Source of the DNA: a virus
Lineage: Duplodnaviria > Caudoviricetes
Direction: 5' to 3' (one strand)
Length of the DNA stretch: 62,176 bases
IMG/VR virus record: IMGVR_UViG_3300025137_003955
Span: 1 to 62,176 of that record
The notes under the pieces were generated by a model, which made no database searches, was not told the origin of the DNA, and saw nothing but the letters and a program-made list of their open reading frames with translations. A program made the position numbers and the translations under genes. This document shows positions 674-30,815 of this stretch, piece after piece (the stretch's first letter is position 1; every line of letters begins with the position of its first letter).

Positions 674-3600
674 ATGGCTGATATTAAAAACTTTGGTATC
701 AAAGGTATAGCGGCTGATGTACAAATGGGCAAATCAGGCGGACGTTTAATTTACGACGCAGGTAACGGAAGATTTGACTTAACTCAAAGTAACGGAACTA
801 CTCTAGAAGATATTAGATTAGGAACGGTTACGGCGGGAGCCTGGAATGGTAGTGCAATCAGTAGTCAATACGGTGGTACAGGACAAGATTTCAGTAGTTC
901 GTCAGGTGTTATTAAGGTTTCAAGTGGAACTATGTCAGCAGGCTCGATTGCCTTGGCATCAGATGTAAGTGGTACATTACCAATTGCAAATGGTGGTACG
1001 GGTGCAACTTCGGCTTCTGCGGCAAGAACCTCTTTAGGACTTGGTAACTTGGCAGTTCAAGCAAGTAATGATGTAAACATAGATGGCGGTGCCATCGATG
1101 GAGCAATTATTGGTGCGAACTCAAAGGCGGCTATTGGCGGAACAACAATCACAGCAACAACGGCATTCGTTGGTGATTTAACAGGAAATTCAGATACAGC
1201 AACAGCACTGGCAACCGGTAGAACAATCGGTATGACAGGTGACATGACATGGACATCAGCATCGTTTGATGGTACAGGTAATGTAACAGGTGCTGGAACT
1301 TTAGCAACAGTAAACAGTAACGTAGGATCATTTGGTAGTACAAGTGCAATTCCAGTTGTTACAGTTAATGCTAAAGGTTTAGTTACAGCAGTAACTACAG
1401 CAAGTATCGTAACTTCTTTAACAGTAGACGGTGATTCAGGAACACAAAACGTAGATTTATCAGCAGATGATTTACAGTTCTTGGGTACAGCAAATGAAAT
1501 AGAAACAGCAGTTACTAAAGACGGAACAGACGTTAAAGTAACTTTAGGTTTACCTAACGACGTAACAATAGGTAATAACCTAAGTGTTACTGGTAGTTTC
1601 TTATCAGATGATATTACAGCGGCTACAGTTACAATTAACGGTAACTTAACAGTTACAGGTACGCAAACAACTACAGATTCTACAGTTGTTACTATTGCAG
1701 ACCCACTATTCCAAGTAGGTTCAAATACTAACGATAACTTAGACAGAGGTGTTACTTATCTACATAACGATGGATCAGCAAAAACTGGTTTCTTTGGTAT
1801 GGACGAAGGTACAGGCGTATTTACATATATTCCAGATGCAACAGACAGCTCATCAGTAATTACTGGTAGTGCAGGTGCTGTTAAATTTGGTGCAGTAGAA
1901 GGTACATCATTTAGTGATGGTACTATTTCAGGTGTAACATTTGTAGATGAAGACAATATGTCCTCAAACTCTGCAACTAAAATACCTACACAGCAATCAG
2001 TTAAAGCATACGTTGACACTCAGATTACAGCACAAGATTTAGATTTTGCGGCTGATTCAGGTGGAGCTCTTGCTATTGATTTAGATAGTGAAGCATTAAC
2101 TATTGCAGGTGGAACAGGACTTACTACAGCAGGTAGTGGAAACACAGTAACAGTAAACCTAGACGACACGGCTGTATCAGCCGCTAGTTATGGTAGCAGT
2201 ACTGCAATTCCAGTATTAACTGTAGATGCACAAGGAAGAATTACAGCGGCTTCAACAGCCTCTATTAGTACTTCTTTCACTAGTGCGGCAGATTCAGGTT
2301 CGTCAAATACTATAGACGGTGGTGACACTTTTACTATAGCAGGTGGAACTGGTATGTCTTCCGTAGCAAGTGCTACAGATACAATCACAATGAACTTGGA
2401 CAATACAGCAGTATCGGCCGGTTCATATGGTAGTGCAACAGCAATTCCAACTTTTACAGTTGACGCACAAGGACGTTTAACAGCGGCCGGAACAGCGGCT
2501 ATTAGCTCAGATTTAACAATCGGTGCTGACAGTGGTTCAGATGACGTTGTAAGAGTAGGAACTGATACATTAAACTTTATAGGTACTTCAAACGAAACTA
2601 CAACAACAGTTAGTAACAATACTATTGCTGTTGGACTAGCAAGTTCGATTAGTGGCTTAACAAGTTTAAGTGCAACAACATTAAGTGATGGCGTAGCAAG
2701 TATGAACTCAGGTGCCCTAACAGGAGTAACAAACGTTACTGCTTCAGGTACAGTACAATATGGTTCATTAAGCGACGGCACAATTACTGTAACAGGTTTT
2801 GCAGATGAAGATAACATGGCATCAGATAGTGCTACACTTATCCCAACTCAACAATCTGTTAAAGCATACGTTGACTCAGTAGCAACAGCGGCCGACTTGG
2901 ACTTCCAAGGCGACTCAGGTGGTGCATTAAGTATTGATCTTGACAGTGAAGTCCTTGACATCGCAGGTGGTACTAACATTACTACTGCAGGTTCAAGTAA
3001 CACATTAACAGTAAACCTAGACGCAACATTATCAGGAATGACAGCAGGTACTTTCTCAGGACAAGTATCAGCAGGTACATTAACTGATGGCGTAGCAAGT
3101 ATGAACAGTGGTGCATTAACAGGTGTTACAACTATTGCTACATCAGGTGATGTAACAGTTGGTGGTAACTTAACAGTTAGTGGTACACAAACTAGTGTTA
3201 ATTCAACTAACACAACTATAACTGACACCTTAATTACACTACAAAGTGGATTAACAGGTGCTAACCCTAATGACATTGGTCACATTTATGAAAGAGGAAC
3301 AGATGGTAACAACGGTTTCTTAGGATGGGATCAAAACGTTGATAGATTTGTAGCGGCGACTACAACTGCAGACGGATCAACTGCTGGTGATTTAACACTA
3401 GCGGCAACTGATTTTGAAGCGGCTGGATTCCTTGGTACAAGTGCTACAATTAGTGGTGCTGTAAGTTTTGGTACATTAACAGATTCAGGTGAGAGCATTG
3501 CTGTTACTAAATTTGTTGATGAAGCAGACGGAATTTCAAGTAACGATAACGATACTACAATTCCAACTTCAGCGGCAGTTGTTGACTATGTTGAAAACAA

Positions 3601-3970
3601 TGGTGGTGACGGACTATTACTAAGAGCGGCAATAACAAGTGGAGCAACAACGGCTTCAATTGGTACTGTCCCTAACGTTTCTAGCAGAACATATTATGCA
3701 GAAAAGATAGTAATCAAAGTCAGCACAGCATTTAGTGGTAACAGTATTAATTACATTACTATTAAAGAAAATGCTGGTTCAGGTAGTACACTTGTTGCTA
3801 AAGCAGACGCAGATGCGGCTACAGTAGGTAACTATATTATAGAACTAGATGGCGACATAGCACTTACAAAAAATGCGGCGGTAACGTTAGCATTCTTTGA
3901 CGCAAGTGATAACGCAGTGGCTCCTTCAGCCGGTGCGGCAGTGGCTTCAGTTCACTACAATTGGGTTTAA
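674..3970 (+). CDS. Long tail fibre / virion fibre protein with internal repeats
   Basis: 1098 aa, rich in G/S/T/A/D. Repeats S[FY]GSxxAIPxxTVxAxG x3 and F[VA]DE...IPTxxxVxxYV x3; GTLPIANGGTGA fibre motif. SD AGGAG upstream, terminator downstream. Confidence 0.75.
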   Translation: MADIKNFGIKGIAADVQMGKSGGRLIYDAGNGRFDLTQSNGTTLEDIRLGTVTAGAWNGSAISSQYGGTGQDFSSSSGVIKVSSGTMSAGSIALASDVSGTLPIANGGTGATSASAARTSLGLGNLAVQASNDVNIDGGAIDGAIIGANSKAAIGGTTITATTAFVGDLTGNSDTATALATGRTIGMTGDMTWTSASFDGTGNVTGAGTLATVNSNVGSFGSTSAIPVVTVNAKGLVTAVTTASIVTSLTVDGDSGTQNVDLSADDLQFLGTANEIETAVTKDGTDVKVTLGLPNDVTIGNNLSVTGSFLSDDITAATVTINGNLTVTGTQTTTDSTVVTIADPLFQVGSNTNDNLDRGVTYLHNDGSAKTGFFGMDEGTGVFTYIPDATDSSSVITGSAGAVKFGAVEGTSFSDGTISGVTFVDEDNMSSNSATKIPTQQSVKAYVDTQITAQDLDFAADSGGALAIDLDSEALTIAGGTGLTTAGSGNTVTVNLDDTAVSAASYGSSTAIPVLTVDAQGRITAASTASISTSFTSAADSGSSNTIDGGDTFTIAGGTGMSSVASATDTITMNLDNTAVSAGSYGSATAIPTFTVDAQGRLTAAGTAAISSDLTIGADSGSDDVVRVGTDTLNFIGTSNETTTTVSNNTIAVGLASSISGLTSLSATTLSDGVASMNSGALTGVTNVTASGTVQYGSLSDGTITVTGFADEDNMASDSATLIPTQQSVKAYVDSVATAADLDFQGDSGGALSIDLDSEVLDIAGGTNITTAGSSNTLTVNLDATLSGMTAGTFSGQVSAGTLTDGVASMNSGALTGVTTIATSGDVTVGGNLTVSGTQTSVNSTNTTITDTLITLQSGLTGANPNDIGHIYERGTDGNNGFLGWDQNVDRFVAATTTADGSTAGDLTLAATDFEAAGFLGTSATISGAVSFGTLTDSGESIAVTKFVDEADGISSNDNDTTIPTSAAVVDYVENNGGDGLLLRAAITSGATTASIGTVPNVSSRTYYAEKIVIKVSTAFSGNSINYITIKENAGSGSTLVAKADADAATVGNYIIELDGDIALTKNAAVTLAFFDASDNAVAPSAGAAVASVHYNWV

Positions 3971-3997
3971 TATAACCTAGGGTAGGGAGTAACTTTA

Positions 3998-4025
3998 AAG
4001 GGCAGTTTTTTACTGCCCTTTTTTT
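3998..4025 (+). terminator. Rho-independent terminator (possibly bidirectional)
   Basis: AAGGGCAGT-ttttt-ACTGCCCTT followed by a T-run, between convergent genes. Confidence 0.85.
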
Positions 4026-4030
4026 GAGTT

Positions 4031-6085: not shown

Positions 6086-6751
6086 ATGCAGAAATTTCCA
6101 ATAGATGAAGTACTAGCAGTTAGTTGTGCCGCTCACAGAATAAATGAGGGCTTTATTAAAAAGGACCAGGTAAGGTTCGATAAAAAGTTTGAAAAAACGA
6201 TATGTAATAGTGACTTATTATATAATTATTTTTTTACAGATAAAAAATTTAAAGTTATTGAAGAGGACAAAACTACTGCAACTGAAGTTAAAGAATATCT
6301 TGCAGGGTTAAGTTTTAAAGCATTAGAAAGACAACTTACTGAATTTGAGTCAAATGTTCTTAAGTTAGTAAGTTCTCCTGAAATTGCTAAGGATAAATTA
6401 GGCATAGCCGCTAGTTTACCTAAAGTATATCTAAATAAAGTAGATCAGGATACTTGGACTGATAGAGAAATGGAATTATCCAGAACTAGTGAAAAAATTG
6501 GTAAACTACATACTAGGGAAAAAATTAATGCTACTGTAGAGTTTACTAGGTATATACCAAGAACTATGAGTTATATTGTGACTTGTAGTGTAAATGACCA
6601 GCACATTCTAAAGTTCTTTACAGACAAAAAAATTGCACCAGGCATAGAGATTACAGTTGAAGGTTTTGTAAAAGGACAATCTAAAGGTAAATATCATGCT
6701 GGATTTGAAACTGTAATAAATCGAATTAAATTTGTTGAAGAAGGAAAATAA
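6086..6751 (+). CDS. Phage hypothetical protein (possible C-terminal OB-like fold)
   Basis: 221-aa ORF with SD AAGGAG and its own promoter. Confidence 0.6.
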   Translation: MQKFPIDEVLAVSCAAHRINEGFIKKDQVRFDKKFEKTICNSDLLYNYFFTDKKFKVIEEDKTTATEVKEYLAGLSFKALERQLTEFESNVLKLVSSPEIAKDKLGIAASLPKVYLNKVDQDTWTDREMELSRTSEKIGKLHTREKINATVEFTRYIPRTMSYIVTCSVNDQHILKFFTDKKIAPGIEITVEGFVKGQSKGKYHAGFETVINRIKFVEEGK

Positions 6752-6895: not shown

Positions 6896-6972
<77 letters not shown>

Positions 6973-7017: not shown

Positions 7018-7401
7018 ATGGCAGAGGTAGAAGGAAAAGGCAACGTACAAGTTGACTTGGAAAAATATACAGAGCTTGTCTTAAAAGTCGATGAGGCACA
7101 AGACAAGATTAACGAGATGAATAATCTCAGAAAAGAATTAGCGATAGCAACTGCGGCCGCTAAACCAGTAGAAAGGTTTTCTTTTGGTGCATTATTTAGA
7201 GATGAAAATGACATCAATGAGAAGGCAATAATTGGTTTTATGAGTTTTGGATTAATGGTTGTATTTGGTGCATGTGATTTAATTACAGCATTTTGGGATA
7301 TGGATTTAAAAATATCTGATACAATATACACATCATTTGTTGTAGTAACTTTAGGTTCATTTGGTATTAGTGAGGCAGGAAAAGCCTTTAGCAAACAGTA
7401 A
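7018..7401 (+). CDS. Membrane protein with N-terminal coiled coil and two TM helices
   Basis: Two hydrophobic segments; late promoter at 6980 and SD AAGGAG. Confidence 0.6.
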   Translation: MAEVEGKGNVQVDLEKYTELVLKVDEAQDKINEMNNLRKELAIATAAAKPVERFSFGALFRDENDINEKAIIGFMSFGLMVVFGACDLITAFWDMDLKISDTIYTSFVVVTLGSFGISEAGKAFSKQ

Positions 7402-25171: not shown

Positions 25172-25351
25172 ATGGTTATTGTAGATGCAGGGGGATATAA
25201 ATTCACATATGACAATTCAATGTCATTCGAAAGCAATTTTTCATTGTGGGCACAAATAAACACAGAAGAAAAATTAGCATTTAATGAGCAACCTTACAGC
25301 AGAGAAGAACAAGAAGAAATTTTTTCTAAACTTTTCTCAAATAAGGCTTGA
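25172..25351 (+). CDS. Small hypothetical protein (59 aa)
   Basis: SD AAGGAG and promoter upstream; MVIVDAGDIKFTYD... Confidence 0.6.
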   Translation: MVIVDAGGYKFTYDNSMSFESNFSLWAQINTEEKLAFNEQPYSREEQEEIFSKLFSNKA

Positions 25352-25375
25352 CTTAGATCAATTTTTTGTTATACT
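25348..25375 (+). promoter_or_regulatory. Sigma70-type promoter
   Basis: TTGACT-16 nt-TATACT. Confidence 0.7.
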
Positions 25376-25407
25376 ATTTGTATAGGTTAAATTAAGGAGT
25401 AACTAAT

Positions 25408-26514
25408 ATGGAAACATTAAACGTAAGAGCAAAATCAGTAAAGCCAATTATTTTAAGGGCTTTAAAGGTTAACAGACCAATTTTTATCTGGGGAGCACCT
25501 GGAATTGGTAAATCAGAATTAGTACAAGGACTAGTTGACGAAGGTGAACTAGGAAATGCATTAATGATTGATATGAGGTTGGCATTATTAGAGCCAACAG
25601 ATCTAAGAGGATATCCTTTTAGAAACCCTGAAAACAATCAAATGGAATGGAGCCCACCAAGTGACTTGCCTAGTCAAGACCTTGCCGCTTCATATGACAA
25701 TGTGGTATTGTTTTTGGACGAACTTAATTCAGCACCTCCTAGTGTACAGGCGGCGGCTTATCAATTAGTTCTTAACAGACGTATTGGACAATACATATTG
25801 CCTGACAATGTTAAGATTGTAGCCGCAGGTAACCGTGAGACTGATAGAGGTGTTACTTACAGAATGCCGGCACCGTTGGCTAACAGGTTTAGACATGTTA
25901 ATATGGAAGTAAACTTTGAAGACTGGTCTCAATGGGCTATGAAGAATACAGTACATCCTGATGTAATTGGGTATCTTAGTTTTTCTAAAGGCGATCTTTT
26001 TGACTTTGATCCTAAAAGTAGTTCACAATCATTTGCAACACCAAGAAGTTGGACTTTTGTAAGTGAGATGTTAGCCGCAGATGGATTTGATAGTGCTGAT
26101 GGCTTTGAACAAAAAGCCGAGATAGCAGGTGCTATTGGTGAAGGAATGGCAATTAAGTTTGTAGAACACAGAAGGATTGCTTCTAAACTTCCTAACCCTG
26201 ATCAAATTATTGGCGGAGAAGTTAAGAACTTAGACAATAAGTTGTCTAAAGAGATTTCAGCCAAGTATTCACTTGTAGTTGGACTTGCATATGAACTAAA
26301 CGAAATGTTTAAAGATGCTGGTATTGACGACAAGTTCAGAAAGGCACTTAATAATGTTGTTAGATTTAGTTATGACAACTTTGAGCCTGAAATGGTTGTG
26401 TTTTTGTTTAAAACAATCATGAAGGATTATCAGATCAGGTTCAACGTAAGAACTGATCTTGATAAAGAACTTCATAAAACATTTAGTGAGAGGTACACAA
26501 AATATATAGCCTAA
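25408..26514 (+). CDS. MoxR-like AAA+ ATPase
   Basis: Walker A GAPGIGKS, Walker B LFLDE, sensor AAGN, Arg finger LANRF, TPRSW. Confidence 0.9.
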   Translation: METLNVRAKSVKPIILRALKVNRPIFIWGAPGIGKSELVQGLVDEGELGNALMIDMRLALLEPTDLRGYPFRNPENNQMEWSPPSDLPSQDLAASYDNVVLFLDELNSAPPSVQAAAYQLVLNRRIGQYILPDNVKIVAAGNRETDRGVTYRMPAPLANRFRHVNMEVNFEDWSQWAMKNTVHPDVIGYLSFSKGDLFDFDPKSSSQSFATPRSWTFVSEMLAADGFDSADGFEQKAEIAGAIGEGMAIKFVEHRRIASKLPNPDQIIGGEVKNLDNKLSKEISAKYSLVVGLAYELNEMFKDAGIDDKFRKALNNVVRFSYDNFEPEMVVFLFKTIMKDYQIRFNVRTDLDKELHKTFSERYTKYIA

Positions 26515-26532
26515 GGGAGAGGCCTATTTCAA

Positions 26533-26608
26533 AAACTTGAGACCTACCTATGTTACTCCCTACCTAAGAATCTCAAGTTTCATCCCCCAGGCAACTGGGG
26601 GATTTTTT
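26533..26608 (+). ncRNA. Candidate 3'UTR-derived sRNA: 10-bp hairpin with anti-SD loop plus terminator
   Basis: AAACTTGAGA/TCTCAAGTTT stem with 28-nt C/T-rich loop CCTACCTATGTTACTCCCTACCTAAGAA, then ATCCCCCAG-gcaa-CTGGGGGAT-TTTTT. Confidence 0.5.
26582..26608 (+). terminator. Rho-independent terminator
   Basis: 9-bp GC-rich stem, GCAA (GNRA) tetraloop, T-run. Confidence 0.9.
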
Positions 26609-26748
26609 ATTGAACCGCGTAGTAGAGCGCCTGAAAACAGTAGGGCCAGATGTTACTACAATAAGGCAATAGCCTAGTTGACTGATCCGTTAGTATAGTA
26701 TGTCCTAGAAAGCGGATTTTCTTATATAAAAGGACAATAAATATTAGC

Positions 26749-27402
26749 ATGAATAAGATTTGGTTTTTTGGAGATAGTTGGTGTTGTAGTGCAGAACCAG
26801 GAACATGGGTTGACGAGTTGGCAATACGAACAAACTCGCATATTGCTCATTTGGGATTTGCTGGTAAATCACTTCATACAACTATGCAGGACTTTGTTGA
26901 TAACATACAATTTATTCAGAGCGATGATATTGTAGTTTTTGTTTACACTTCTGTTTTTAGGTGGAGGTTCCAAAATAATTGTTTTAGACAAGGCGTATCA
27001 ACTCGCGAGGACCAAAATCAAGCACATCAAAATATTACAAAAGAGCAATTTGATGCTTATAACAGATACTTGTTATACCTTAGCGACCCACAAGAAGAAG
27101 AGCTTAGGGCGGCTTCTTACATAAGTTATATGTATAATTACCCACTTCCCTGTAAAACAATACATTTACCTGCCTTTGGAGATTTTCCTATAGACTATAT
27201 CCCAGGTTTTAAGACTTTAGAAAACATTGACGCCTCTAATACAGGGAATTTTACTAGTCTTATATGGCAGTTTGAGAAAGATAATAACTTAACATCAGGA
27301 GCAACAAGTAGTTCAATAGACAATCATATGGGAGAGCCCGGCACACCAACAGATGCAGTACCCTATATACTAAAAAATATAGAACATTTACTTGACAAAT
27401 AA
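26749..27402 (+). CDS. SGNH/GDSL-hydrolase-like protein
   Basis: FFGDSW block I, G..G.S block II, C-terminal DNH. Confidence 0.6.
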   Translation: MNKIWFFGDSWCCSAEPGTWVDELAIRTNSHIAHLGFAGKSLHTTMQDFVDNIQFIQSDDIVVFVYTSVFRWRFQNNCFRQGVSTREDQNQAHQNITKEQFDAYNRYLLYLSDPQEEELRAASYISYMYNYPLPCKTIHLPAFGDFPIDYIPGFKTLENIDASNTGNFTSLIWQFEKDNNLTSGATSSSIDNHMGEPGTPTDAVPYILKNIEHLLDK

Positions 27403-27419
27403 TACTTTTTTGCTATAAT
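27392..27419 (+). promoter_or_regulatory. Sigma70-type promoter
   Basis: TTGACA-16 nt-TATAAT with extended -10. Confidence 0.85.
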
Positions 27420-27448
27420 AGTTGTATAGTTAAATTAAGGAGTAACTA

Positions 27449-28771
27449 ATGTCAGATACAAAACAAGCAAAAGCAGAACAGCCTAAAGATAGAGTTGCAG
27501 AAGCACTTTATGAAATACCTGAAACTTCGCTTACATCTACAGAAATAGAAGATAAACTTATTAAAGCAAGGATTGAAATGCTTATTTCAGCACCCTTCTT
27601 TGGTAACTTAGCAACTAGACTTAGATTTAAAGATGCAACAGAATGGTGCCCTACTCTTGCTACTGACGGCAGATACTTTTACTATAACAGGAACTTTGTT
27701 GCCGCAATGAGCGACGCTGAAATTGTATTTGGAATTGGACACGAAGTATTACATTGTGTTTATGATCATTTCGACGTTATCAGACGTGGCGACAGAGACC
27801 CACGTTTATGGAATATTGCTAACGACTATGTTATTAATGCAGACTTAATTGATGCTAAGATAGGCGAGGAGATTAAGTTAGTTAAAATTTGTTTTGATTG
27901 GAAATATCGAGGTATGGTATCAGAAGAAGTTTATGACGACTTATTTGAACAAGCAAAAGAAGAAGGCAGAGTTATGGATATGGAGTCTTTTGATATTCAC
28001 TTAGACAGAGATGACGGTGACGATGACGGAGCAACTGGAGAAGGCGGAGAAGCAAATTCTGAAGGTGGCGATAAAGACGGTCCTGCAAAATATACTGCTG
28101 AAGAGAAAGAAAAGATTTCGCAAGAGTTTAAAAATGCTACAATGCAGGCGGCCAAAGCCGCAGGTGCTGGTAACTTACCCGGTGGAGTTAAAAGAGCATT
28201 AGATCATTTGCTAAACCCTCAGTTAGATTGGAGACAACTAATTGCTATGCAAATCCAAAGTACTATTAGAAGTGACTATACATATCAAACACCAAGCCGT
28301 AAAGGACTTAATGAAGGGTTTTACTTACCTGGTATGGACAGAGAAACAACTATAGACGTTGCAATATCCATGGACGTGTCAGGCTCTATATATGATACAA
28401 TGTTACGTGACTTCCTTTCAGAAGTTAAAGGCATTATGGATCAGTATACAGACTTTAGAATACATTTGTTCTGTTTTGATACTGAAGTACATAATCCAGT
28501 TACATTTACACCACATAATATGGAAGAGTTTTTAGAATACGATATCCAAGGTGGTGGCGGTACTGAGTTTGATTGTGTATTTGATTACATGAAAGAAGCA
28601 GGTATTGTTCCTAAGAAGCACATTATGTTTACAGACGGCTATCCTTGGGGTAGTTGGGGTGACGAAAACTACTGTGATACATTGTTTATTGTGCATGGTT
28701 CCGGATATGGTGGCAAAAGTCCAGTAGCACCGTTTGGAATCACAGTACCTTATACTAGAGAAGATGATTAA
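27449..28771 (+). CDS. Metallopeptidase-like (HExxH) plus VWA domain protein (DUF2201-type), MoxR partner
   Basis: ATDG, HEVLH, WNIANDYVIN, MIDAS DVSGS, GGGGTEF, FTDG. Confidence 0.9.
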   Translation: MSDTKQAKAEQPKDRVAEALYEIPETSLTSTEIEDKLIKARIEMLISAPFFGNLATRLRFKDATEWCPTLATDGRYFYYNRNFVAAMSDAEIVFGIGHEVLHCVYDHFDVIRRGDRDPRLWNIANDYVINADLIDAKIGEEIKLVKICFDWKYRGMVSEEVYDDLFEQAKEEGRVMDMESFDIHLDRDDGDDDGATGEGGEANSEGGDKDGPAKYTAEEKEKISQEFKNATMQAAKAAGAGNLPGGVKRALDHLLNPQLDWRQLIAMQIQSTIRSDYTYQTPSRKGLNEGFYLPGMDRETTIDVAISMDVSGSIYDTMLRDFLSEVKGIMDQYTDFRIHLFCFDTEVHNPVTFTPHNMEEFLEYDIQGGGGTEFDCVFDYMKEAGIVPKKHIMFTDGYPWGSWGDENYCDTLFIVHGSGYGGKSPVAPFGITVPYTREDD

Positions 28772-30432: not shown

Positions 30433-30460
30433 TTGACAAATCATATAAATTTGCTATAAT
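30433..30460 (+). promoter_or_regulatory. Sigma70-type promoter
   Basis: TTGACA-16 nt-TATAAT with extended -10. Confidence 0.85.
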
Positions 30461-30485
30461 ATATAGTAAATGTTAGGAGTAACAT

Positions 30486-30815
30486 ATGATTGAGATACTA
30501 CAAGAAGTCACTGATTGGGGCAAATATAAAGTAAATAATGGTGTATACCACATTAATGGTGCTGGTAAACTTATAGCCTATCAACGTAACAAAGATTCAG
30601 AGGTACAAATATTAAATGTGCCTAGTAACCAATTTAGTAAATCGAGACGTAAATTTGTTAAGATAGGCGAACGTGCTGAAGAGTTGGCTAGCCATATTGT
30701 TAAAGTAGAAGGTTCTAATGGTGCTGTTTATCTAATTGATACAGATAAAAAGACTTGTACTTGTCCTGGTTTTACATTTAGAGGTACTTGTAAACATATT
30801 AAAGAATATCTTTAA
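30486..30815 (+). CDS. SWIM zinc-finger protein
   Basis: CTCPGFTFRGTCKH (CxC-x8-CKH). Confidence 0.8.
   Translation: MIEILQEVTDWGKYKVNNGVYHINGAGKLIAYQRNKDSEVQILNVPSNQFSKSRRKFVKIGERAEELASHIVKVEGSNGAVYLIDTDKKTCTCPGFTFRGTCKHIKEYL

Follow-up and report, generated by a model that had tools for sequence, protein, structure and literature searches.

A hairpin in the untranslated 3' part (3'UTR) of the mRNA of a MoxR-like AAA+ ATPase gene was found to be conserved among related phages, and its loop is complementary to the leader of the same gene and to that of a second gene, which encodes a VWA-like protein. The gene and the hairpin lie in the 62,176-nucleotide (nt) stretch of viral DNA analysed here (the window; IMG/VR record IMGVR_UViG_3300025137_003955). 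With a probability of roughly 0.6, the element is read as an anti-leader hairpin that would pair with the translation start regions of MoxR and VWA. The hairpin itself, its conservation, its complementarity to these leaders and the co-variation of loop and leader are directly seen in the window and its relatives. The window is a 62-kb IMG/VR viral contig with a G+C content of 35% and a completeness estimate of 17%, and such an estimate for a 62-kb contig indicates a giant-phage origin.

The stem of the hairpin (P1) is a perfect helix of 10 base pairs (bp) which starts 18 bases after the MoxR stop codon and spans, together with its loop, positions 26533-26580. The 5' arm AAACTTGAGA (26533-26542, + strand) pairs with the 3' arm TCTCAAGTTT (26571-26580, + strand). 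The C/U-rich loop of 28 nt that carries the conserved anti-leader sequence, CCTACCTATGTTACTCCCTACCTAAGAA (26543-26570, + strand), reads CCUACCUAUGUUACUCCCUACCUAAGAA between the stem arms and has the architecture CCUACCUA-UGUUACUC-CCUACCUA-AGAA. Two copies of CCTACCTA occur in the window, both inside the loop, a number that is unremarkable as 61 of 100 window shuffles reached at least two. One base separates P1 from an intrinsic terminator (26582-26608, + strand) with a G+C-rich hairpin (26582-26603) of 9 bp, six of them G-C, closed by a GCAA loop and followed by T6 in the downstream tract TTTTTATT. The stem, the 28-nt loop, their position after MoxR, the strong terminator and the repeated loop motif had all been described in the initial annotation, which was made from the letters of the window, and all were present.

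Relatives of the element (related loci or contigs, designated by L-numbers, with loop types that include type A and type C) showed the same arrangement. A search with the MoxR protein produced 29 related viral loci with 66-100% identity, and the hairpin was present in 27 of the 27 loci that reach past the stop codon, with different stem sequences, a nearly unchanged loop and a second hairpin behind it. A single copy of the exact loop 20-mer was found in each of 32 viral contigs; 31 have MoxR immediately upstream, and the remaining locus begins within the element. A profile search gave 80 loci, 79 of them with a full-length MoxR, and the element stands directly after MoxR in 67 of these 79 protein-ascertained loci, down to a protein identity of 52%. 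The 67 element-bearing loci carry the exact 24-nt loop core (32 loci), a UUACUCC variant (27 loci) or an ACUCC variant (eight loci). The element was absent in 12 of the 79 loci, which are L130 and L131 (53-54% identity) and the G+C-rich group L135-L144 (48-50%); the sole ACTCC match in that group (L135) falls in apparent coding sequence. Among cultured relatives, Pseudomonas phage PA5oct has the ATPase closest to the MoxR protein (47.6% identity), and in this phage a terminator alone, without the element, follows the MoxR homologue.

Folding of the non-redundant relatives showed a stem of 9-15 bp, an open conserved loop and a second hairpin in 36 of 37 sequences, the 37th being incomplete owing to the chosen coordinates. 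The U tract after the second hairpin is weak in some clades, where GGUUCACCUUAU or CCCAUCCUUUU is present instead. A covariance model (R1) built from six type-A sequences produced one match per source in 33 of 58 sources, with no second copy in the window; five whole records of 74-250 kb likewise contained one copy apiece. R1 misses type C, L092 and L014, and the hairpins of these rest on a separate stem search and on folds. In the R1 alignment of 27 distinct sequences, all 11 modelled stem pairs change on both sides. A total of 69 double-change cells was observed against 19.4 ± 3.4 in shuffled alignments (0 of 500 shuffles reached 69) and 5-17 in slid controls, and the covariation score was 0.651 against 0.226 for shuffled alignments and 0.05-0.16 for slid controls. 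The U-G and G-U pairs of the stem are compatible with the + strand alone. The 24-nt loop core was 100% identical in 25 distinct protein-ascertained relatives, over whose last 90 coding nt the identity at third codon positions was 44%; the protein-ascertained set was used for this comparison because a set chosen by the loop itself is biased. Overall, the element is a conserved structured RNA with a loop under selection and not a product of chance. In the type-C loci L025, L026 and L114-L117, an additional small hairpin within the loop takes the place of the 5' CCUACCUA repeat or breaks it up, and UUACUCCUACAACCUA is kept.

The parent mRNA is predicted from a sigma-70-type promoter of the MoxR-like gene (25348-25375, + strand) with TTGACT, a spacer of 16 nt, TATACT and a TG before the -10 element, which agrees with 10 of 12 consensus positions. 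Judged by promoter spacing, the transcript would start near A25382 and have a leader of 26 nt (25382-25407, + strand) that carries TAGGT (25383-25387) and GGAGTAAC (25396-25403). The gene follows at 25408-26514 (+ strand; 368 amino acids; stop codon TAA at 26512-26514), and no terminator lies between the promoter at 25348 and the loop. In the window, GGAGTAAC complements loop nt 26552-26559 and TAGGT complements the loop segment ACCTA (26562-26566).

The own MoxR leader, with its Shine-Dalgarno (SD) sequence, was complementary to the loop in every clade. All 44 distinct loop/leader pairs had a contiguous match of 7-11 nt, which reached 8 nt or more in 32 of them and 10 nt or more in 17. For comparison, 400 other leaders of the same loci reached at least 7 nt in 60 cases, at least 8 nt in 29 and at least 10 nt in four, and the 148 of these leaders with GGAG did so in 43, 27 and four cases, respectively. 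The common register joins GGAGUAAC to GUUACUCC, and each of its positions 0-7 is base-paired in 27-33 of the 33 distinct pairs. Five further loop/leader pairs use the AAGGUAGG:CCUACCUU register. Loop and leader have also changed together. In L092, the loop UCCUACAUCACUCC (AUCACUCC) forms 11 bp with the leader GGAGTGATGTA, and three positions are compensated in comparison with the 11-bp type-A helix of L006 and L083. Two compensated positions were found in L014 between the loop UACUACUCCU and the leader AGGAGTAGTA, and in type C a compensatory change is seen in the loop UUACUCCUAC, which is matched by the leader GTAGGAGTAA. Own loop/leader pairs had a mean match of 8.64 nt and -17.5 kcal/mol against 7.74 nt and -15.4 kcal/mol for swapped pairs, and 0 of 20,000 permutations reached the observed values in this test, which is uncorrected for phylogeny.

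The matching sequences are rare elsewhere in the same genomes. GGAGTGAT has two occurrences in a 122-kb record, one in the leader and one in the loop, and GGAGTAGTA has two occurrences in 63 kb. GTAGGAGTAA is confined to leader and loop in three of five records; of the remaining two records, one contains an additional site that precedes no gene and the other has two divergent genes with the same leader. At L253 (G006:C1:66400-67000, ~250-325), two divergent genes of a type-C phage carry the leader GTAGGAGTAAT, a 10-mer that they share with the phage's own MoxR leader. Joint folding of leader and 3'UTR with RNAcofold gave mixed results and was set aside as unsuitable, because the algorithm would have to treat a loop-leader helix inside a closed hairpin as a pseudoknot.

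The second partner is the VWA gene. Its promoter (12 of 12 consensus positions) and leader are located at 27392-27448 (+ strand), with GGAGTAAC at 27439-27446 as the loop complement, and in the window this leader is almost a copy of the MoxR leader. Of 38 distinct pairs of loop and VWA leader, 30 matched over 7 nt or more, 19 over 8 nt or more and 14 over 9 nt or more, and type-C VWA leaders pair UUGUAGGAG (9 nt) with the type-specific ACAA segment of the loop. The longest match at a gene start of the window was found for a SWIM zinc-finger gene, which has a promoter (12 of 12 consensus positions) and leader at 30433-30486 (+ strand), where GGAGTAACATA (30476-30486) is a perfect 11-nt complement of the loop. 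Among 25 distinct orthologue leaders, all compared with an assumed type-A loop, the 11-nt SWIM match was retained in four; three more had 7 nt and 18 had at most 6 nt, and most of these 18 visibly have no promoter cassette of the kind described further below.

The initial annotation had placed GGAGTAAC in the MoxR (25396) and VWA (27439) leaders and a perfect loop complement at the SWIM ribosome-binding site (RBS), and these sites were confirmed; GGAGTAAC also occurs in the SWIM leader (30476) and at 2723 and 3986. The six matches to GGAGTAAC on both strands of the window compare with 1.42 expected, and 0 of 100 shuffles reached six; in type-A records the sequence occurs 5-11 times per record against 0-2 times for a reversed control. 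Further loop matches of 7 nt at the starts of the genes at 7018 and 25172 and a partial match in the leader of the gene at 6086, which had also been pointed out, are present as well.

The longest loop complement in the window outside the loop is GGTAGGGAGTAAC (3981-3993, + strand), a perfect match of 13 nt in the 3'UTR of a fibre-like gene of 1098 amino acids (674-3970), 7 nt before a terminator at 4000-4025; 10 of 500 shuffled loops had a match of 13 nt somewhere in the window. The site is a candidate for a partner in trans or a sponge. In 12 contigs with both genes, the fibre site had 10-13 nt in five (p ≤ 0.001 each against shuffles) and was at null level in seven. The matches split into two clades on different parts of the loop, with GGTAGGGAGTAAC in the clade of the window and CATAGGTAGGC (10-11 nt) in L022 and L023, and L150, a contig with no known loop, has a fibre-site match of 17 nt. 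The fibre-gene 3'UTR (3971-4027) carries CCTAGGGTAGGGAGTAAC in a single-stranded position before the terminator GGGCAGT...ACTGCCC followed by T7. Judged by its sequence, the site looks like a leader mimic or a partner RNA.

A mechanism can be proposed from these data. Transcription from the promoter at 25348 would give an mRNA of ~1.23 kb ending at the terminator at 26582-26608, and P1, just 5' of this terminator, would display an open C/U-rich loop of ~25 nt. The loop segment GUUACUCC would pair with GGAGUAAC in the SD region of its own mRNA species and ACCUA would pair with UAGGU at its 5' end, and the loop could also pair with the closely similar VWA leader, in trans or on read-through transcripts. 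Hindered binding of the 30S ribosomal subunit would be the likeliest effect because the pairing covers the SD sequence, and synthesis of MoxR and VWA would then be limited or timed once full-length transcripts exist. In some clades, other genes with the same promoter-leader cassette and the site in the 3'UTR of the fibre-like gene may serve as extra partners. Pairing and repression in the cell, and likewise action in cis or in trans, are what we infer from sequence; the most consistent evidence would be explained by action in cis on the same mRNA no less well than by action in trans.

Several observations weigh against this mechanism. The own-leader match is just 7 nt in L013, L015, L017, L021 and L075, and the VWA leader match is only 5-6 nt in eight of 38 pairs; L092, whose MoxR leader has co-varied, is one of the eight. 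A pairing of 8-11 nt with the own leader leaves the invariance of all 24 loop nt unexplained. The permutation and enrichment tests ignore shared ancestry, and independent support comes from about three lineages with compensatory change. Metatranscriptome contigs overlap the element at low depth and are uninformative on RNA ends. In addition, the minimum free energy (MFE) fold of the 3'UTR in the window pairs CUCC of the loop with GGGAGAGG and is 3.1 kcal/mol better than the P1 hairpin. GGGAGAGG is an SD-like sequence directly 3' of the stop codon (26515-26522, + strand) that can pair with CUCCC of the loop in this alternative fold, which is the MFE fold in three of 49 distinct 3'UTRs (the window, L082 and L083) and for that reason not a conserved feature.

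The window taken alone gave little statistical support. The loop was compared with 79 roughly called start regions by RNAduplex, and it scored no better than shuffled loops in mean energy (p 0.11), in the count at or below -10 kcal/mol (p 0.28) or in the mean of the top five (p 0.057), nor better than shuffles that keep CTCC (p 0.2-0.45); MoxR ranked 5th and VWA 14th among the 79. Contiguous matches of at least 7 nt were found in eight genes (p 0.14-0.25) and of at least 8 nt in three against 1.2-1.5 for shuffled loops (p 0.15-0.18). The maximum contiguous match was 11 nt (p ~0.02 against shuffled loops), and a match of at least 7 nt was present in four of eight gene leaders assigned by eye to consensus-type promoters. 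A general anti-RBS function of the loop was dropped because these window-only target statistics are not significant. The initial annotation had described a repressor of early genes that includes its own parent mRNA among its targets; complementarity to the own and VWA leaders with compensatory changes agrees with the parent mRNA as a candidate target, and the general shut-off of early genes was not supported. The target pattern is beyond chance across relatives and is not clearly so within the window alone.

As for post-stop sequences such as GGGAGAGG, roughly every second type-A relative carries, directly behind the stop codon of MoxR, an SD-like purine run (GGGAGAGG, GGGAGTAAGGG or TAGGAGG) that could pair with the loop, as in the window (26515-26522) and in L013, L083, L084, L094 and L006. 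A post-stop GGGAG as a generally conserved switch was rejected, as the corresponding fold is the predicted MFE fold in just the three of 49 distinct 3'UTRs named above. On sequence grounds, a translation-sensitive switch through such runs is conceivable.

The anatomy of a seed beside a terminator would also suit a discrete trans-acting small RNA (sRNA) of ~75-100 nt derived from the 3'UTR, with an anti-SD seed and a global shut-off of early genes as its effect. An AU-rich stretch 5' of the stem may be an RNase E site, and partners on other transcripts were found in the VWA leader (30 of 38 pairs, as above), SWIM (11 nt) and the fibre 3'UTR (13 nt; 17 nt in L150 and 10-11 nt in L022 and L023), together with the repeated occurrence of GGAGTAAC in type-A records. 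However, window-wide tests against shuffled loops were not significant and just four of eight consensus-promoter leaders reach 7 nt. The SWIM match is retained in four of 25 orthologue leaders and the fibre site in five of 12 contigs, and the complement is unique to the MoxR leader within 58-122 kb in L092, L014 and most of type C. Several clades also have no proper U tail after the second hairpin, and the low-depth metatranscriptome contigs are uninformative on the ends of such an RNA. An sRNA of this kind is considered rather unlikely.

The same loop-leader pairing could protect the mRNA from 5'-end-dependent decay and not repress it, as proposed for the contact between the 5' and 3'UTR of the hbs mRNA (PMC5737220). 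The loop does complement the predicted 5'-terminal UAGGU or UUAGGUA of leaders, but this match is short (5-7 nt) and variable, and the longest and best-conserved helix covers the SD sequence (positions 0-7 paired in 27-33 of 33 registers) and should compete with the ribosome, so that protection appears improbable. Still less credence is given to a hairpin that is a binding or cleavage site of a protein, either an RNA-binding protein of phage or host or an RNase, with an incidental anti-SD likeness, or to leader and loop as DNA operators of one protein. The 24 invariant loop nt and the repeated CCUACCUA exceed the needs of one helix of 8-11 bp, and leader and loop, taken as double-stranded DNA, share one sequence that is inverted in one of the two sites. 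The co-variation, however, links complementary RNA sequences in a register anchored on GGAG:CUCC, and the covarying stem uses G-U pairs that work only in + strand RNA and are unneeded for a DNA operator.

The anti-leader hairpin may be extended to a hub of a phage RNA-RNA network, which is regarded as quite unlikely. It would combine a self-timer of MoxR, control of VWA in trans and late titration by a sponge in the fibre 3'UTR (3981-3993). The MoxR mRNA would be translatable only until its own 3' end is made and folded onto the leader, the loop would hold the separately transcribed VWA partner in step, and late in infection the leader-mimic sponge would titrate the loop. If true, such a network would provide the first described phage examples of a 5'-3' UTR feedback loop and of pairing between two 3'UTRs.

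To our knowledge, very few experimental cases exist in which a bacterial-type mRNA is regulated by its own 3'UTR through its own RBS, namely icaR and, in a different sense, hbs. The 3'UTR of icaR has a length of roughly 390 nt, and RsaE/RoxS and RNAIII are examples of sRNAs with C-rich or anti-SD seeds. In the icaR mRNA of Staphylococcus aureus, a 3'UTR motif pairs with the own SD sequence, blocks the initiation complex and creates a substrate for RNase III (Ruiz de los Mozos et al. 2013, PMC3868564). The phage element resembles icaR in having a C-rich anti-SD motif in the 3'UTR that is complementary to the SD region of the same mRNA. As in icaR, the motif lies in the 3'UTR of what is predicted to be the same transcript (26543-26570, between the stop at 26514 and the terminator at 26582). 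The complementarity of the phage loop to the own SD is retained in relatives. There is no sequence relation to the icaR motif, which is UCCCCUG in a long 3'UTR, whereas the phage loop has 25-28 nt and is held open by a covarying stem within a UTR of ~95 nt. The setting is a phage and not a bacterium, and the loop also matches a second gene, VWA.

The class of sRNAs derived from 3'UTRs (PMC5502269) shares with the element a conserved single-stranded C/U-rich seed beside the parent terminator that is complementary to other RBSs. Unlike these sRNAs, the phage element has the leader of its parent mRNA as its most constant partner and a poor U tail in several clades. For Hfq-type sRNAs, PMC5558911 gives a rho-independent terminator with a long tail of 7 or more U as the rule; the terminator tail in the window is U6-A-UU. 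The seed is conserved with the MoxR and VWA leaders as conserved targets, and other targets are clade-specific. In hbs of B. subtilis, the contact between the two UTRs controls access of ribonuclease and stabilises the mRNA; long-range complementarity between the two ends of one mRNA is common to that account and the phage case, but the phage helix is centred on the SD sequence. No Rfam 15 family reached its gathering threshold at the element, and in the whole window only one tRNA (6896-6969) did. The best sub-threshold match at the element was RF02837, anti-hemB, a Burkholderia sRNA (26545-26610; 22.9 bits against a gathering threshold of 49.5), which likewise has a small hairpin and then a terminator; with a score below gathering the phage element is not a member. 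Among the literature matches listed, the top 8-12 of each search, none reported 5'-3' UTR anti-SD pairing in a phage or dealt with this motif. The hairpin defines a new structured RNA family and the phage setting is also new, while the class of mechanism is already known.

The hairpin is shared by dozens of uncultured marine giant phages, and several lineages with joint change of loop and leader amount to a natural mutagenesis series. The new RNA family is usable for annotating giant-phage genomes, and a leader-reporter with swapped loops could test the pairing in a laboratory host, without the natural host. The pair of MoxR and peptidase-fused vWA proteins is proposed as a virion-assembly chaperone system of group 2.2 jumbo phages in PMC7824862. 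Conservation of the hairpin suggests that the dose or timing of this MoxR-VWA/peptidase chaperone pair matters to these phages.

In metatranscriptomes, the 24 runs listed each contained under half of the sampled words, and contigs of four RNA runs were compared with the window. Low-depth contigs were found over MoxR and VWA, and contigs of one run (X6) overlap 26377-26559 and 26535-26701, with DNA carry-over as a possible source. No contig of the four RNA runs covers 26760-26903, and these contigs are uninformative on termination. An internal promoter in the 3' end of MoxR was not established by inspection by eye: TATAAT overlaps the stop codon in some relatives, and no properly spaced -35 element was seen. 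A search for a 21-nt loop pattern on both strands of 185,579 species genomes produced one match, in a coding frame of a Salinimicrobium contig and with no hairpin, where ~2 chance matches had been guessed beforehand. As this lone match is at chance level, no bacterial genome carries the loop or its full-length complement, shorter complements not having been searched.

The MoxR protein matches Pfam AAA_5 and AAA_3 below cut-offs only. The VWA-like protein (27449-28771, + strand), the presumed partner of MoxR, has a putative N-terminal metallopeptidase domain, and matches to Pfam DUF2201_N and DUF2201 were found with E-values of 8e-39 and 3e-14. The distance from MoxR to VWA is 146-220 nt in most relatives, and a gene of 217 amino acids with no Pfam match (26749-27402) is located between them only in the nearest relatives of the window. 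A tRNA-Arg(TCT) gene was found at 6896-6972.

A consensus sigma-70-type promoter and a short leader precede each of MoxR, VWA and SWIM. This promoter-leader cassette (TTGACA, 16 nt, TATAAT and a leader of ~25 nt ending in TTAGGAGTAACA or TAAGGAGTAAC) is repeated upstream of unrelated early genes. It shifts between genes among related phages (25348-25407, 27392-27448 and 30433-30485 in the window; L224-L234), and the SWIM leader of the window, for example, is identical to the VWA leader of L005 and L009.

Finally, a second non-coding block of ~115 nt (26612-26725) lies directly 3' of the terminator. It is present only where extra variable genes separate MoxR from VWA and is near-identical in L004, L005, L012 and L032, in which MoxR is 80-95% identical. 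The fold z-score of the block was only -1.0 and no Rfam match was found for it. A diverged copy in L009 retains the terminal hairpin (ATCCG...CGGAT and a T run) despite a different sequence. The block may represent a further small RNA, or the border of a mobile cassette.

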